A stretch of DNA of 64,000 nucleotides from an uncultured Actinomycetes bacterium (GCA_963704885.1 CAVPIB010000001.1:1-64000), one strand, 5' to 3'. Shown: positions 1-57,445, counted from the stretch's first letter. The notes: generated by a model not told the origin, from the letters alone. Numbers and translations: made by a program.

Positions 1-1
1 G

Positions 2-1663
2 ACCTGCCTCCGCTGTGACTGGCAAGGCGAGACGAAGGAACGAGCGTGCCCCAACTGCGGAGAACAGCCGCTTTACAACGTCGGTGCTCCCACGTCAGGG
101 GAGGCGGGGGTGCCGGTACAGAGCCGACCCAAGGAGCAAAGCCACAAAGCATCCAGCACAGCAAGCGTGACTTCCGTCCGGCGCCCGGTCCCTCCGGTCG
201 AAACACCCCCGTCCACGACGGATGCGGTCGAACCGTCGGACCGATCCGCCCGCTCAGCCGTGGTGTTCGGCGTGACAGCCCTCGTGCTGACCGTCACCCT
301 GGGCACCTGGCTCAGGGCGCACGAGGAACGCACGTCCCCGGCAGCACCGGCGGACGCCGCGGCTCCCGCCAGCGACGGCTCGCCTGCGCCGGTCGTCGAG
401 TCCTCACCGACGCCCGCGAACGCCCCTCCCTACGAGCCACCTCCTCCCTTCCGCTGGCACACGGTCTCCGAGATGGGCGTTCCGCTCTCGTTCAAGGTGC
501 CAACGGGTGGGTGGGAGAGCTTCCGCAGCATCGGGACTCCCGAGTCCCCCGGAGGGCCGATCTCGATCAACAAGTCGATAGTCGGGCCACAGGGCGCAGA
601 GGCCATCATCTTCTGGACGAGCTTCCCCGACGGCGACTACGCCGACCCTTGCACCCGTCTGCTGGGGCCGTCGGTTGGTCCATCGGTCGCCGATCTCGCG
701 GACGCGGTCGCTACCGCGCCCGGCACCGTCCTCGTCTCCGGCCCTTCGGACGTCACCATGGGCCGGCGCGCCACGAAGCACGTAGCGCTCACTGTTCGCG
801 AGAACGTCGGGTGCGACCCGGGATTCTTCTACACGTGGAAAGACGTGTCTGGGGGTGCGCTCTGGCCACACACCGGCTTGGGCGCCACGATCGACGTATG
901 GATCGTCGATGTGGACGGGAAGACTTTGTTCATCGAAGCCGCGACGAGCAAGCAGGCCGATCCCGATCTGAAGCGGGAAGTCCAGAAGATCATCGGCTCG
1001 ATCCGCTTCGCCGAGCCCGATCTGCGCACAACCGCGGCTTTGGCAGCCGACTACGATTTCCGGAACTCACGCGCCAGCTCGGTCGAGACGGCCCCGGACC
1101 TGACAGACATCGGTCAGGGCTCGAACAGCTTCATCGACGAGATCTTGCTCAGGCAGAGGCGGACCGTGCTGGCGTTCCCCGAGGGCAACGGCTTGTCTCT
1201 CTCCCCAACCACCGGGGTGATCAACGGAGACCGATACTCGATCGAGCTCCTGTTCCGCCTCGACAGCATCGAGGGCTACCGGAAGATCATCGATCTCAAG
1301 AACGCCTCGGACGATTCCGGGCTGTACATCCTCGATGGTCGGCTGACCTTCTTCGACGTCGGAACGCCTTCACCGACGACGATCGAGGCAGATACCTACG
1401 TACAGGTCGTGCTGACCCGGGCCGCCTCCGGTAAGGTCGCGGCGTACGTCAACGGCGATAGGCAGTTCTCCTTCCAAGACGTCGGCGGGCTTGCCTTGAT
1501 CGATACGAGCGATGCCCTTCGATTCTTCACAGACGACGCGATCATGGGTGGTGAGCAGTCCGGGGGAGCCGTCTCTCGGATCCGGTTGTATGACCGGCCG
1601 CTCAACGCGAACGATGTCTTCGTGCTCGCGTGCGAGGAGATCCCGAACGCCCCCTGCGGCTAG
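2..1663 (+). CDS. Membrane-anchored protein (5'-partial): CxxC-x10-CxxC zinc ribbon, Pro/Ser linker, one TM helix, PsbP-like domain and C-terminal LamG/concanavalin-like domain
   Basis: The frame of ORF 110..1663 is open back to base 2 (TCLRCDWQGETKERACPNCGE). TM helix VVFGVTALVLTVTLGTWL. LamG-like motifs YSIELLFR, YVQVVLTR..AAYVNG and SRIRLYDRPL. Confidence 0.7.
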   Translation, partial: TCLRCDWQGETKERACPNCGEQPLYNVGAPTSGEAGVPVQSRPKEQSHKASSTASVTSVRRPVPPVETPPSTTDAVEPSDRSARSAVVFGVTALVLTVTLGTWLRAHEERTSPAAPADAAAPASDGSPAPVVESSPTPANAPPYEPPPPFRWHTVSEMGVPLSFKVPTGGWESFRSIGTPESPGGPISINKSIVGPQGAEAIIFWTSFPDGDYADPCTRLLGPSVGPSVADLADAVATAPGTVLVSGPSDVTMGRRATKHVALTVRENVGCDPGFFYTWKDVSGGALWPHTGLGATIDVWIVDVDGKTLFIEAATSKQADPDLKREVQKIIGSIRFAEPDLRTTAALAADYDFRNSRASSVETAPDLTDIGQGSNSFIDEILLRQRRTVLAFPEGNGLSLSPTTGVINGDRYSIELLFRLDSIEGYRKIIDLKNASDDSGLYILDGRLTFFDVGTPSPTTIEADTYVQVVLTRAASGKVAAYVNGDRQFSFQDVGGLALIDTSDALRFFTDDAIMGGEQSGGAVSRIRLYDRPLNANDVFVLACEEIPNAPCG

Positions 1664-50989: not shown

Positions 50990-51349
50990 CTAAGCGCTGA
51001 ACTCCAGCTTCGGGTTGATCATCCTCACGGCGCCCCGCTGCTCGCCCAGGACGCCCTCGACGACCACGCGCGTCCCCAGCGTGAGCCCGCCGATGCCTCG
51101 ACGGCCCATGAATACGACCACGGCCTCGCCGGACCCGTCGGAGACCAGGGCCTCGAGCGACTCCTTGCCCTCCATAGGGAAGACGGTCATGCGCTTGATC
51201 ACGCCCGCGATCTTGACGGGCTCGCGCATGGGCGCGTGTGCGATGTCGGTGGTGCCCGGCACGCTCTCGGCCCAAGTGCGGATCTCGGCCGACAGGCGCA
51301 CCTCGTCGCTCTCGCCCAGTCGGTCCAGGAAGCGACCGATCGCGCCCAT
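50990..51349 (-). CDS. OB-fold nucleic acid-binding domain protein
   Basis: LEALVSDGSG, FMGRRGIGG, MINP. Typical neighbour of the ceoBC pair. Confidence 0.8.
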   Translation of the reverse strand: MGAIGRFLDRLGESDEVRLSAEIRTWAESVPGTTDIAHAPMREPVKIAGVIKRMTVFPMEGKESLEALVSDGSGEAVVVFMGRRGIGGLTLGTRVVVEGVLGEQRGAVRMINPKLEFSA

Positions 51350-51361
51350 CTCGACTCCTGC

Positions 51362-53618
<2,257 letters not shown>

Positions 53619-53808
53619 CGAACCTCCTCGAACTAGGGGAGCGAAGTCTCATCCGCCCGGCAACCCGGCCGGGAACCCGGGAAGTATAGGGAATGGCTTG
53701 ACGCCCCGACCTGCGAGGAAGAGCCGGGAAGCCGTCATCCTCCGGGCCATCTGACCCTTTGCCGCCTCGTGGGCGAACCCCTAGCATCCGAACGAAGCAA
53801 CGCACGAT

Positions 53809-53854
53809 GGGGTGCCGGGAAGCCGGGTCGGCAGGACGTTCCGGTACCCCTTTT
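53809..53854 (+). promoter_or_regulatory. 5'-leader element: shared 21-nt motif (53814..53834) overlapping a 12-bp terminator-like hairpin with U-tract
   Basis: GGGGTGCCGGGA (53809-20) pairs with TTCCGGTACCCC (53839-50), followed by TTTT. TAGCAT -10 at 53782. Confidence 0.6.
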
Positions 53855-53872
53855 CTGTGTTCCAAGGAGACC

Positions 53873-55246
53873 ATGAAGACGAGGCGAGCGACCAGGATCG
53901 GCGTCTTGTTGTTCGCGTTCTCTTTCGCGGTGATGGCCGATCCGGTGTCCTCGGTCGCCTATGCGATCGAAGCGGCGCTTCGCGCATTGAAGGGCAACCT
54001 GACCCTTCTCCTCCCGACCATGGTGCTCGTCCTCGCGATCATCTACCTGGTCAAGGTCAACTACGACCAGCTGATCCACCGGTTCCCCGAGGGCGGAGGC
54101 GCGGTGGCCGCGACCGGCGCGGCGTTCGGCGAGGGCTGGGCGTTCCTGCCGCTGGGAGCGCTGATCGTCGACTTCGTGCTCACGATCGCGATCAGCGTGG
54201 CGGCGGCCTCCTCGGCCGTCATCGCGTACTTCCCCTCGCTCCAGGGTGCGCGGACGATCATCGCGCTCGCCCTCCTCTGCTTCGTCGCTGGGCTGACGTG
54301 GTTCGGCCACATCGGACGGAGCGTGTTCGCGGCGATGACAGTGCTGTTCATCCTCGCCGTCGTACCGATCGTGCTGTTCGGGTACCTGGCGCCGCACTCG
54401 ATGGGCGATGCGCCTTTGCAAGGGACCGGCAGCGGGTCTTCCATCCTGCTCGTGCTCCTGGCCTTCCCGGTGGCGATGGCTCTGGCGACCGGGGTCGAGG
54501 CGCCCGCGTCCGCGATCGCGCAGCTGGGCCAGTTGGACGACGTGCAGAAGGAACGGTTCGGCCACCGGACCCTCTACCTGACGGTGCTGACCACCTCCGC
54601 CATAACGCTCGCGATCGCGGGCCTGGCCTTGAAGCTCCACGTCGGGGTACCGGCCGAGGGCAGCACCATGATCGCCGACGTAGCGAAGACGGCCACGGGC
54701 AACGGTGTCTTGTTCGCGTTCTTCCAGCTGACCAGCTCGCTGCTGCTGCTCGCGGCCGCCGCATCGTCCTTCCAGGCTGGTCCGGGCCTGCTGAAGGCGC
54801 TCGCCCGGCACACGCGGGACAACGGCGAGGAGGTCGGGATCCTGGCCCCTCCGCTAGGGCGGACGAACCGCCACCACACGCCCTACTGGAGCGTCACCGT
54901 CTACCTCGTGATCGCGGGGATCGTGGTCGTGGCCGCGGGGGGACGCGACCAGGAGCTCGTGCTCTTCTACGCCGTCGCGGTGTTCGTCAGCTTCCTGGCG
55001 GGGCTGCTGTCGATGGCGCGGTTCTCACACCAGGAGCGCGACCGCCTCCACGTGGTGATCAATATCATCGGCGCCGGCGTGGTGGCCTTCACGATCCTCG
55101 TGAACCTCCAGCGCGGGTACCCACTGGCCTCGCTCGCGGCGGGGCTGGCGATCTCTGGCGTGTTCTTCTGGCAGTGGGACCGCCTCGGCCGGCCGCGCGG
55201 GATCGCGATGGTCGAGATGCAGGCCGAGGCCGAGATCCAGGAGTAG
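53873..55246 (+). CDS. APC-superfamily KimA-like transporter lacking the cytoplasmic C-terminal domain
   Basis: MADPVSSVAYAIE, PEGGG, DFVLT, ATGVEAP. About 12 TM segments. AAGGAG RBS. Confidence 0.85.
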   Translation: MKTRRATRIGVLLFAFSFAVMADPVSSVAYAIEAALRALKGNLTLLLPTMVLVLAIIYLVKVNYDQLIHRFPEGGGAVAATGAAFGEGWAFLPLGALIVDFVLTIAISVAAASSAVIAYFPSLQGARTIIALALLCFVAGLTWFGHIGRSVFAAMTVLFILAVVPIVLFGYLAPHSMGDAPLQGTGSGSSILLVLLAFPVAMALATGVEAPASAIAQLGQLDDVQKERFGHRTLYLTVLTTSAITLAIAGLALKLHVGVPAEGSTMIADVAKTATGNGVLFAFFQLTSSLLLLAAAASSFQAGPGLLKALARHTRDNGEEVGILAPPLGRTNRHHTPYWSVTVYLVIAGIVVVAAGGRDQELVLFYAVAVFVSFLAGLLSMARFSHQERDRLHVVINIIGAGVVAFTILVNLQRGYPLASLAAGLAISGVFFWQWDRLGRPRGIAMVEMQAEAEIQE

Positions 55247-55266
55247 CGAGCCACATCTAGTCCGTA

Positions 55267-56634
55267 TCAGACTAGACCTCGGCGGGCGTTCGTCTCTCCC
55301 GCCCAGCGGAACAGCATGTAGCCGATCGCGGCGGCAAGGATCGAGGCCACCAGGATCGCAACCTTCGCCTCTGCCAGGAGCGGCGACTGGCCGAACGCCA
55401 GATCGGCAACGAACAACGACACCGCGAATCCGATCCCTGCCGTGGTGGCGAGTCCGGCCAGCGCCCCCCACCCCACCCCTTCGGGCAACTTGCCCAAGCC
55501 GAGCTTGACGGCGGCTAGGCTCGCCAGCCAAACACCGAGGAACTTGCCGACCACGAGCCCCAGAACGATCCCCAGCGCGATACGGCTGCTCGCCGCCTCG
55601 CGCAACGCGGCCGCAGACAGCTCGACGCCGGCGTTCGACAGGGCGAACAGCGGCAGGATCAAGAAGCTCGACCACGGAAGGAGGAAGTGTTCGACCCGTG
55701 CGAGAGGCGACACAGCCTCCTTGGACAGTTGCGCGAGCCGCAGCCACCAGTGCGCGTCCGCGTCGGGGGGAGACGGGTCATCGACCGTTTCGTCCGCGGT
55801 TCGGTGCGCCTCCTCGCTCACGGCCTTCGGGCGCTGGAACGGCACGGCGGGCGCGAGCAGGCCGAGGATCACGCCGGCGATGGTTGGATGGATGCCGGAC
55901 CTCAGGATCGCGAACCAGAGCAGGACCCCGAGGATGACGTAGACAGTCGTCGCACGGACGTGGAGGTTGCCCAAGGCTGCGATCAACAGGACCAGCATCA
56001 CGGCGATCAGCAGCGAGACCGGTTTCACCCCGCCCGAATAGAACAGGGCGATGACCATGATCGCACCGATATCGTCCACGATCGCGAGGGTGAGCAGGAA
56101 CGGCTTGAGAGAAGGAGGCGCGAACCTGGCCGCAAGGGTAAGCGCGCCCAAGGCGAAGGCAACGTCGGTCGCCATAGGGACGCCCCACCCCTCGGCACCG
56201 GGCCCTCCCGCGTTGACAGCCAGGTACAGCAGCGCCGGCACGACCATCCCGCCCAGGGCCGCGATCATCGGCAGCGCGGCGGCCCGCCACTCTCGGAGCT
56301 CGCCGGTCGTCAATTCGCGCTTGATCTCAAGGCCCACGAGCAGGAAGAAGAAGGTCATGAGACCGTCGTTGACCCATCCGCGCAGATCCTCCACTACGAC
56401 CCATGACCCGATCCGAAGAGACGCCTCCGTGTGCCACAGCTGCGCGTAGCCCTCACGCCACGGGGAATTCGCCCAGACCAGGGCTACGACCACGGCCACG
56501 AGCATGAGGAGGCTGCCGGCCGTGGACGTCCGCATGAACTCCTGCAGCGGACGGAGAACCACTCGAGGAACGAGACGGTCGGAACTGGCGAACGGGGTGC
56601 GCAGCCCTTCGCTCGGGGGGCCGGTGTCGACCAT
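55267..56634 (-). CDS. nhaA: Na+/H+ antiporter NhaA
   Basis: WVNDGLM..FF..VGLEIKRE, GWGVPMATDVAF, LAIVDD, GK..G, GIGF. Confidence 0.96.
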   Translation of the reverse strand: MVDTGPPSEGLRTPFASSDRLVPRVVLRPLQEFMRTSTAGSLLMLVAVVVALVWANSPWREGYAQLWHTEASLRIGSWVVVEDLRGWVNDGLMTFFFLLVGLEIKRELTTGELREWRAAALPMIAALGGMVVPALLYLAVNAGGPGAEGWGVPMATDVAFALGALTLAARFAPPSLKPFLLTLAIVDDIGAIMVIALFYSGGVKPVSLLIAVMLVLLIAALGNLHVRATTVYVILGVLLWFAILRSGIHPTIAGVILGLLAPAVPFQRPKAVSEEAHRTADETVDDPSPPDADAHWWLRLAQLSKEAVSPLARVEHFLLPWSSFLILPLFALSNAGVELSAAALREAASSRIALGIVLGLVVGKFLGVWLASLAAVKLGLGKLPEGVGWGALAGLATTAGIGFAVSLFVADLAFGQSPLLAEAKVAILVASILAAAIGYMLFRWAGETNARRGLV

Positions 56635-56649
56635 GGTCACCTCACCCTT

Positions 56650-56670
56650 CTGCCGACCAGTCTTCCCGGC
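56650..56670 (-). promoter_or_regulatory. Second copy of the 21-nt leader motif (GCCGGGAAGACTGGTCGGCAG), upstream of nhaA
   Basis: 19/21 identical to 53814..53834. Lies between a TATCCT -10 (56684-89, minus strand) and the GAGG RBS. Confidence 0.65.
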
Positions 56671-56758
56671 GCACCGGGCGACAGGATAGCCGTCGCCGCG
56701 GCCTCGGATGACCCGGATGGTTGTGGGACCCATGCCGCACCCGTAGGCTGTCGGCGTT

Positions 56759-57445
56759 TTGGCACAGGGCCGTCACGTTTCCTCATCCTCCCGCATCAAG
56801 CTCGCGATCCTCGCCATCGGCGGGGTCGTGGTCGTCGCCGCGGTGATCCTTGCCTTCGTACCCAACGGAGGCGGGGGTAGCGAGGGACCCTTCAAGCACG
56901 ATCCCGAGACCCCTCCGTTCGAGTTCGTGACGGCGAAGGTCCTCTCGGTCCCGACCAGTCCTGATGCCGATGAGGCCGCGTTGCAGACCAGAGCCGAGGC
57001 ACCGGCCGGCGAGGTCACCAAGGCCATGGACGCCTTGTACACCAGCGCATTCCTGGATCCGGTCAACTGGCAGGACGGCACCTACGACGACGTCTGGACC
57101 TTGTTCGATCCGGGATCGGGGACCGAGGCGCAGGCTCAGATCGAGGTCGTCACCGCGGGAACGGGCGCCGGCGCCGTCTTCGACTCGATCGTGCCGATAG
57201 GAGACTCGACCCTCAGCGCGAAGGTCCTGTTCGATCCCCAGGACGAGCCCTACTCCGTGATCGCGATCGTGAGGTTCAAGGCCAGGGGCAGCGGCCTGGA
57301 CGGCCAGGACGTCGAGATCATGAGCAGCGGGCAGTACGTGTTCCAGAGGGTCGATGGCTCGTGGAAGGTGGTCTCTTTCAAGGTGTTGCGAGACGACGAG
57401 ATGCGGGTGCGTCGCTCTCCGAGCCCGTCCGGGAGTTCGGTGTGA
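56759..57445 (+). CDS. Hypothetical membrane-anchored secreted protein
   Basis: N-terminal TM helix. The stop overlaps the LCP start (GTGA). Confidence 0.65.
   Translation: MAQGRHVSSSSRIKLAILAIGGVVVVAAVILAFVPNGGGGSEGPFKHDPETPPFEFVTAKVLSVPTSPDADEAALQTRAEAPAGEVTKAMDALYTSAFLDPVNWQDGTYDDVWTLFDPGSGTEAQAQIEVVTAGTGAGAVFDSIVPIGDSTLSAKVLFDPQDEPYSVIAIVRFKARGSGLDGQDVEIMSSGQYVFQRVDGSWKVVSFKVLRDDEMRVRRSPSPSGSSV

Follow-up and report, generated by a model that had tools for sequence, protein, structure and literature searches.

We identified two copies of a 21-nt motif in a 64,000-nt stretch of DNA (the window) from an uncultured Actinomycetes bacterium (GCA_963704885.1, CAVPIB010000001.1:1-64000). One copy lies ahead of a KimA-like APC permease gene and the other ahead of nhaA. 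On balance we lean toward the reading that the motif is the core of a small cis-acting ON RNA switch, present in two copies, and that it most likely responds to intracellular Na+ (or Li+), which the RNA would bind directly. Copy 1 (GCCGGGAAGCCGGGTCGGCAG, 53814-53834, + strand) and copy 2 (GCCGGGAAGACTGGTCGGCAG, 56670-56650, - strand) are identical at 19 of 21 positions. Both had been reported in an earlier reading made from the DNA alone (the sequence-only reading); their coordinates, opposite strands and identity can be read directly from the sequence. Its placement of each copy in sense orientation, upstream of its own gene, likewise agrees with the sequence and with the gene matches given below.

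A degenerate pattern that tolerates up to three mismatches matches the window exactly twice, compared with a mean of 0.08 matches in dinucleotide-preserving shuffles of the window, of which 0/100 reached two. A third good copy in the 3.0 Mb genome (G000) was found neither by pattern nor by covariance model; the latter, derived from 147 distinct 30-mers, gives two matches, of 44.2 and 36.9 bits. The two units converge in the window, 2.85 kb apart, and the same arrangement is present in a genome of the same genus (G011). At other loci (L083, L112/L113, L173, L190, L191 and L202) two copies lie back-to-back across a single intergenic region, approximately 150-800 nt apart. Such copies serve divergent genes, such as nhaA and NfeD or nhaA and TrkH.

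Across genomes, the 21-mer proved to be the core of an RNA element of approximately 26 nt with the consensus GGNGN-GCCGG-GAAGNCUGG-UCGGC-R (core positions numbered from 1, tail positions -5 to -1). The element comprises a 5' GGNGN tail and a 6-pair hairpin with a near-invariant 9-nt loop, GAAGNCUGG. The hairpin stem (helix A) consists of a non-Watson-Crick closing pair (-1/20) followed by G1-C19, C2-G18, C3-G17, G4-C16 and G5.U15. Tail, helix A and loop are common to all leader types, and for this reason we take them to be the sensor.

In 78 of 155 canonical instances, a gap of 6-8 nt separates the end of a TANNNT hexamer from G-5; in another 28 the gap is 12-16 nt, which is the arrangement in the window's relatives. 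The 6-8 nt spacing recurs in 67 of 75 compensated position-2 variants (described below). This spacing predicts that the element is transcribed and that it starts at, or within a few bases of, the transcript 5' end. In the analyses that follow, a -10 hexamer at the right spacing is referred to as promoter context, a criterion that is independent of pairing.

The three tail guanines G-5, G-4 and G-2 lay outside the search pattern and are invariant in 151/151 exact-core instances; position 20 is a purine in 141 of these. The 'GGT-containing segment' that the sequence-only reading had noted before each copy is part of the element, as GGNGN precedes the core in all 151 exact-core instances, from other genomes. 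A scan that forced G-4 to differ returned 73 matches, many with good promoter context and with tails (GUUGA and GAUGY, for example) of the form G-NN-G-N. Conservation of the tail is thus strong, not absolute.

Because invariance of the core in the first set is partly by construction, we tested pairing by forcing one side of a proposed pair to differ and reading its free partner. The position-2 scan (position 2 not C, positions 18-19 free) returned 120 distinct matches. Among the 79 with promoter context, 2-18 is Watson-Crick in 71, G.U in 7 and mismatched in 1. Among the 41 without promoter context, which come mostly from other phyla or from coding sequence, 25 are mismatched. When position 3 was forced away from C, 32 of 37 matches in promoter context pair at 3-17 (16 Watson-Crick and 16 U.G), and 39 of 83 without promoter context are mismatched.

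Ten helix variants occur among 261 clean instances. They include U-A, A-U and G-C at 2-18, U-A and A-U at 3-17, and U-A and A-U at 1-19. Both sides thus change at pairs 1-19, 2-18 and 3-17, as is generally expected of a covarying aptamer structure. Moreover, G5.U15 and U3.G17 pair on the sense strand only. These observations establish that positions 1-5 pair with 15-19 on the sense strand, within helix A (-1..5 with 15..20). Compensatory changes at three stem pairs, strand-specific G.U among them, also support the sequence-only reading in proposing an RNA and not a DNA operator.

The closing pair (-1/20) is U.G in 122 of the 261 instances, C.A in 72, A.A in 22, U-A in 15, A.G in 14 and C-G in 2. 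Both U.G and C.A are present within Streptomyces leaders alone. An exchange between U.G and C.A is the classic signature of a pair with wobble geometry. The exact-core alignment itself shows no standard covariation and fewer standard pairs than shuffles, because the search pattern dictates five of the six pairs and the remaining one favours C.A.

Other folds fared less well. A hairpin pairing GCCGG with CUGGU (loop GAAGN) was rejected as the conserved structure, as it is broken by the A2, G2 and A3 variants and leaves the changes at positions 17-19 unexplained; it may be a transient conformer. A three-way junction (GGU/ACC, GCCGG/CUGGU, CGGC/GCCG) was set aside on the same grounds. We also rejected a pseudoknot between tail and loop, in which N-3 and N10 do not covary (U/U is the commonest combination) and U12G variants keep G-5.

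Of 61 genomes from the window's own genus, family and order, 52 contain the 19-nt core with at most one mismatch, at 74 places compared with 12 for a reversed-pattern control. In a collection with one genome per species (185,579 species), the exact core is found in at least 125 stretches. The matches listed include Streptomyces, Nocardia, Arthrobacter, Mycolicibacterium, Amycolatopsis, Micromonospora and Leucobacter, as well as Acidimicrobiia, Gaiellales, Solirubrobacterales and one Chloroflexi metagenome-assembled genome (MAG). With the covariance model, we identified 69 matches of at least 33.7 bits in 42 of 151 genomes sampled evenly from the phylum, with at most 7 per genome; the 14 remaining matches all score at or below 29.6 bits. 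With the variant scans, the element was also recovered, ahead of similar kinds of gene, from Saccharimonadales, Dormibacterota, Chloroflexia, Rothia and Bifidobacterium. The element is thus present throughout Actinomycetota and also in Saccharimonadales, Dormibacterota and Chloroflexota.

Outside Actinomycetota (loci L336, L349, L372, L434, L452, L339, L470 and L347), the element lies ahead of NhaA-like N-termini in Saccharimonadales MAGs and ahead of DUF2254-like and KimA-like genes in Dormibacterota; Chloroflexia also carry it. Saccharimonadales genomes are strongly reduced, which would favour a self-sufficient RNA, and as a pointer to protein-free ligand binding this occurrence is only suggestive. 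Our counts include unpublished genomes (L010 in G059, L013 in G049, L030 in G034, L034 in G008, L169 in G173, L181 in G200, L207 in G137, and one match with one mismatch in G041). No conclusion depends on unpublished genomes alone.

The genes downstream of the element define a regulon of sodium or alkali-cation homeostasis. We chose the first downstream open reading frame (ORF) by third-position GC. Four of the 155 instances had no ORF candidate and one, the window permease, was scanned apart; the other 150 were scanned against Pfam and counted by hand. NhaA accounts for 81 of the 150 ORFs, followed by Na_H_Exchanger (18), CBS (6), DUF2254 (6), Na_Ca_ex (5), ABC_tran (DrrA/NatA-like, 3), AA_permease_2 (KimA-like, 2) and PPDK_N (2). 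TrkH, CitMHS, Sulfate_transp, NfeD, Peptidase_S15, Glyco_transf_28 and Proton_antipo_N were each found once, and 20 ORFs have no family. Besides the 81 NhaA proteins, at least 25 more of the 150 are Na+-coupled transporters.

A similar picture comes from the covariance-model matches, for which the 31 ORFs include NhaA (19), NfeD (2), no family (5) and one each of CBS, Mrp-type Proton_antipo_M, SulP/STAS, a hydrolase and a weak rve match. The element thus lies in leaders ahead of nhaA or other Na+/Li+-related genes, and the frequencies of NhaA (81/150 and 19/31) amount to the enrichment ahead of cation transporters that the sequence-only reading had anticipated. Some non-transporters also recur, including NfeD-type membrane proteins (three, at L026, L173 and L191), S15-family hydrolases (two, at L100 and L151) and PPDK_N/PEP-utilising proteins (two, at L125 and L142). 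DUF2254 and small CBS-pair proteins recur as well.

We identified an intrinsic terminator that shares nucleotides with the element in 12 of 414 instances. In this type, the 5' arm of the terminator consists of the tail and positions 1-5, the stem closes 2-8 nt past position 19, and a T-rich tract follows. Controls with a reversed and a shuffled arm gave 1 and 4 instances, respectively. A thirteenth terminator match was discarded as a chance match in a Burkholderiaceae MAG. The terminator 3' arm matches N-3 in 11 of 12 instances (G-C, A-U and U-A) and N-1 also in 11 of 12 (U-A, U.G, C-G and G-C). Terminator and sensor hairpin are mutually exclusive in this type, which still has 10 examples without the unpublished L010 and L013. 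A termination platform, proposed by the sequence-only reading from a single leader, thus has 12 examples in which the arms covary with the variable tail bases.

Window copy 1 belongs to the terminator type. Its tail, GGGGU (53809-53813, +; consensus GGNGN), doubles as the outer portion of the 5' arm in the terminator. In the sensor hairpin (53813-53833, +), helix A pairs U53813-G53818 with U53828-A53833 around the 9-nt loop GAAGCCGGG (53819-53827); this fold is the minimum free energy (MFE) structure of the isolated 26-mer and is backed by compensatory changes in homologues. The terminator (53809-53854, +) has a 12-bp stem, 53809-53820 with 53839-53850, followed by TTTT at 53851-53854. Its 5' arm uses the tail and the 5' strand of helix A, and it cannot coexist with the sensor hairpin. 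The sequence-only reading had described this 12-bp hairpin and TTTT tract overlapping copy 1, and we recovered it with a folding energy of -26.5 kcal/mol and a z-score of -2.25. A simple promoter and terminator scan of both leaders gave no match; its -35/-10 consensus does not fit these leaders, and it missed the copy 1 terminator because its loop limit is 8 nt.

The candidate -10 hexamer of copy 1, TAGCAT (53782-53787, +), marks a putative promoter and ends 21 nt before the GG tail, a longer gap than the common 6-8 or 12-16 nt. At loop position 12 (53825), copy 1 has G where the consensus has U. This U12G change may be a tolerated or a specificity-changing variant. It is also found, independently, at L204 in a different genome, where an ABC ATPase gene follows. 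Approximately 80 nt before copy 1, its intergenic region also contains 12 nt of the motif's 5' half (GCCGGGAAGCCG, 53723-53734, +) with no 3' half, which may be a chance match or a remnant.

A candidate second type of output module lies in the downstream sequence. CCGACC, the complement of positions 13-18, occurs within 50 nt downstream in 42 of 148 instances, compared with 2 of 148 in a background window, and GACCCC occurs in 29 compared with 2 (n = 148). Instances with A18 have UCGACC in 20 cases and CCGACC in 8, and those with G18 have UCGACC in 19 and CCGACC in 40 (Fisher p = 0.001, for related sequences that are not independent). By pairing with the hairpin's 3' strand, the (G)YCGACC arm would exclude helix A. 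It runs into the Shine-Dalgarno (SD) sequence in the nhaA leaders of Streptomyces (CCGACCGGAGG). In the window's relatives, a CCGACC(CC) arm lies in the first nhaA codons and would leave SD and AUG inside the loop.

Window copy 2 would belong to this downstream-arm type. A candidate -10 hexamer, TATCCT (56683-56688, -), ends 7 nt before G-5, which puts the predicted transcription start at about 56676-56675. The element (56651-56675, -), with its tail GGUGC at 56675-56671, is the best covariance-model match in the genome (44.2 bits). Helix A, closed by a C.A pair, joins C56671-G56666 to U56656-A56651 and is backed by covariation in homologues; its loop, GAAGACUGG, spans 56665-56657. The 21-mer ends at 56650; the GAGG at 56643-56640 is 6 nt further on by coordinates, as the sequence-only reading had estimated for the ribosome-binding site (RBS), and the ATG begins at 56634. 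The output region (56615-56649, -) contains the SD AAGGGUGAGG (56649-56640), the ATG (56634-56632) and three segments complementary to the element: UGACC at 56639-56635, GGUC at 56632-56629 and CCGGCCCC at 56624-56617. According to predicted pairing, these segments can enclose SD and AUG.

We propose that each 21-mer marks one copy of a small RNA switch that acts in cis and is located at or close to the mRNA 5' end. The switch would be built from a sensor common to all leader types and from a second pairing that competes with the sensor hairpin and turns the gene off. In copy 1, the intrinsic terminator would take up the tail and the hairpin's 5' strand as its 5' arm. In copy 2, sequence around and just after the start codon would pair with the hairpin's 3' strand, and partly with its 5' strand, and so enclose SD and AUG. 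A signal that stabilises helix A would prevent termination or free the initiation region. We infer an ON switch because both output modules consume one strand of helix A, and this logic would fit genes that export Na+/Li+ or import K+.

The ligand would be intracellular Na+ or Li+, bound directly by an RNA of a new class, structurally unrelated to known alkali-cation riboswitches. Direct binding is suggested by the regulon, by the phylogenetic spread, Saccharimonadales included, and by analogy with the Li+/Na+ classes as presented in the sections cited (PMC9646797, PMC9337991, PMC5737381). A more specific proposal, which we hold tentatively and with slightly more doubt than confidence, is that this 5'-terminal hairpin of approximately 26 nt represents an undescribed alkali-cation (Na+/Li+) riboswitch class, among the smallest natural aptamers. 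Its pocket would consist of the wobble-type closing pair (U.G or A+.C), the G.U pair, the G-rich nonaloop and the tail. Seven conserved unpaired G would leave room, within this proposal, for a G-quartet-like or triplex core.

The sequence-only reading could not assign the motif to a named family and suggested a search with cmscan, which we carried out against the 4227 models of Rfam 15. The whole window gives only a tRNA at gathering thresholds. Positions 53400-57000 have no relevant match at E up to 10, and 20 loci from other genera have nothing relevant at E up to 1. The covariance models for nhaA-I/Li+-I, nhaA-II/Li+-II and DUF1646/Na+-I match neither the window leaders nor the 20 other loci. 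By these searches, then, the element cannot be detected as belonging to any catalogued family, nhaA-I, nhaA-II and DUF1646 included. Nor is it described in the literature searched, a search that left out the supplements of PMC5737381, PMC6429828, PMC8632094 and PMC11109978. The term 'nhaA' is absent from the main text of three papers on discovery in intergenic regions, and a 2026 language-model preprint contains no relevant term.

ANTAR targets are two tandem hairpins with hexaloops. The present element differs from them in having one hairpin with a nonaloop, and it has no Rfam match. ANTAR-target RNAs resemble it, as far as the cited sections describe them, in being actinobacterial leader hairpins near start codons, there read by a protein (PMC8164766, bioRxiv 10.1101/660928). 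The HMP-PP (thiS) riboswitch offers a likeness to copy 1, as its description in the section cited is of a very small sensor that shares terminator-stem nucleotides; its sequence, ligand and genes are unrelated (PMC6478431).

Li+-I (nhaA-I) and Li+-II (nhaA-II) are described in the sections cited as 5'-leader RNAs that lie mostly before nhaA and act as ON switches (PMC9646797, PMC5737381). Most are thought to act on RBS access, with rare variants that carry an intrinsic terminator, and the representatives named there are proteobacterial (Azorhizobium, Pseudomonas and Brevundimonas; PMC9646797). Our element shares with these classes, so described, its place in the 5' leader and its commonest gene, nhaA. 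It differs in architecture, being just one hairpin of six pairs with a loop of 9 nt and a tail on the 5' side, in occurring in Actinomycetota and their neighbours whereas their examples are proteobacterial, and in serving a wider range of genes (CPA1/2, Na/Ca exchangers, ABC ATPases, KimA-like, CBS and DUF2254). Na+-I (the DUF1646 motif) is reported to govern diverse sodium-related genes (PMC9337991), and terminators are reported to be common downstream of DUF1646 RNAs (PMC5737381). On these accounts, the diversity of the regulon here is closer to Na+-I than to a pure nhaA regulon. The terms 'Actinobacteria' and 'Streptomyces' are absent from the main text of the Na+-I paper (PMC9337991).

Several observations weigh against the ion-binding switch that we favour. 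The sets come from pattern searches, genomes that are related do not count as independent, and in nearest-neighbour folding the hairpin has no advantage over shuffles (z +0.14 and -0.82). Copy 1 may be impaired, given its U12G loop substitution and atypical -10 spacing. At copy 2, the MFE fold of the isolated element favours the other register, GCCGG:CUGGU. The RBS-access platform that the sequence-only reading had envisaged at nhaA is only partly sustained: a pairing that encloses SD and AUG can be drawn as a prediction, but the 61-nt leader folds no better than shuffles (MFE -24.3 kcal/mol, z -0.30).

The downstream-arm module is less secure than the terminator type, because in many other leaders the arm merely abuts the SD without covering it, which leaves repression in the off state unexplained there, and because A17 variants are not compensated in the downstream arm. 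A crude longest-helix search for the arm did not beat its control (modes of 7 pairs and, for the reversed arm, 6) and was replaced by the k-mer enrichment and covariation test given above. Validated Li+ and Na+ aptamers are larger than approximately 26 nt, and a sensor of this size would be unusually small for an ion aptamer. Finally, Na+ and Li+ cannot be told apart by the regulon alone, nor can Na+ be distinguished by it from ionic or alkaline stress or from a signal mediated by a protein.

The last of these possibilities is the most substantial alternative, although we consider it rather unlikely: a cis-regulatory hairpin read by a trans-acting RNA-binding protein (or small RNA) that carries the ionic signal, with the RNA itself binding no ion. 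A small element with a near-invariant 9-nt loop and tail resembles protein-recognition hairpins, the stability of the hairpin alone is unremarkable, and the small CBS-pair proteins that recur downstream (6/150 and 1/31 ORFs) could be sensors. However, no co-distributed protein partner was seen, although no search aimed at one was made. The same sequence is found in Actinomycetota, Saccharimonadales, Dormibacterota and Chloroflexota, and the same protein would have to persist in all of them. A U.G/C.A closing pair is also not a protein signature; such wobble geometry is typical of metal-binding sites. Alternatively, the RNA could respond to pH without any ligand, folding through protonation of an A+.C closing pair or through transcription speed at alkaline pH. 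NhaA is needed at alkaline pH, a C.A wobble needs a protonated A, and C.A closes the helix in 72/261 instances, window copy 2 included. We nevertheless judge a pH response to be improbable. Most of the 261 instances close with U.G (122) or U-A (15), which do not titrate. At high pH the A+.C pair would be lost and the ON conformer thereby weakened, the reverse of what nhaA requires, and Na+-coupled transporters predominate in the regulon.

A 5'-terminal hairpin that acts constitutively, by stabilising the mRNA or setting the translation rate, with no sensing at all, would account for a location at or near the predicted 5' end, where stabilising hairpins are typical. It seems a little less probable again, since it explains neither the invariant loop and tail, nor the single functional regulon, nor the mutually exclusive, covarying terminators and downstream arms. 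We give very little weight to an operator in the DNA, bound by a transcription factor immediately past the promoter. The 19-mer is indeed a partial palindrome (GCCGnnnAGnCTnnnCGGC) that overlaps approximately +5 to +25, but the changes preserve RNA pairing, including G.U pairs, which lack symmetry in DNA. Moreover, the flanking pair favours T..G and C..A (the palindromic C..G occurs in only 2/261), non-palindromic positions are as invariant as palindromic ones, and terminators recruit the 5' half as an arm, with changes that compensate. Least probable of all is a diverged member of nhaA-I/Li+-I, nhaA-II/Li+-II or DUF1646/Na+-I. The commonest gene, nhaA, is the same according to the sections cited (PMC9646797, PMC5737381), but none of the 4227 Rfam 15 models gave a relevant match (window leaders at E up to 10, 20 loci at E up to 1), and the published representatives named in the section cited are proteobacterial (PMC9646797).

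The permease gene downstream of copy 1 (ATG at 53873 to stop at 55246, +) has an RBS, AAGGAG, at 53864-53869 and encodes a protein of 457 aa. This protein has no match in Pfam or NCBIfam; it matches the K+ transporter KimA (PDB 6S3K) at E 1.4e-22 over residues 20-383, its sole solved relative. A homologue at L034 matches AA_permease_2 at 4.7e-13. The nhaA gene downstream of copy 2 (55267-56634, -) encodes 455 aa from the ATG at 56634 and matches PF06965 (1.2e-141) and TIGR00773 (396.9 bits, cut-off 254). Divergent from nhaA is a 228-aa ORF (56759-57445, +) that has no Pfam or NCBIfam match.

Upstream of copy 1 and divergent from the permease gene lies a membrane pyrophosphatase gene (51000-53618, -). 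The gene looks frameshifted, with a break near 52100-52115: past approximately residue 503 the listed frame is Arg/Pro/Gly-rich nonsense, and another frame carries on typical pyrophosphatase sequence. Pfam coverage extends only over residues 32-504, and the NCBIfam sodium-translocating pyrophosphatase scores fall under their cut-offs. The break may be an assembly indel or the mark of a pseudogene.

Few alkali-ion riboswitch classes are known, and none is named in Actinomycetota in the sections cited (PMC9646797, PMC9337991, PMC5737381). Very short leaders, which searches of long intergenic regions skip, can hide widespread RNA classes, and the short leaders and small size of this element may explain why such searches missed it. 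At approximately 26 nt, and with natural compensatory variants available, the element is directly testable; if our reading is correct, it would also be an attractive minimal ion-responsive part for high-GC hosts such as Streptomyces. It would then control how sodium is exported and potassium taken up throughout Actinomycetota, with Streptomyces, Mycobacterium, Bifidobacterium and Rothia among them, and with a reach that extends to Saccharimonadales, Dormibacterota and Chloroflexota. The genes under its control would form a phylum-wide Na+/Li+ regulon of nhaA, CPA1/2, Mrp, NatA-like pumps, Na/Ca exchangers and KimA-like K+ uptake, and the CBS, DUF2254 and NfeD families of unknown role would gain a physiological context.

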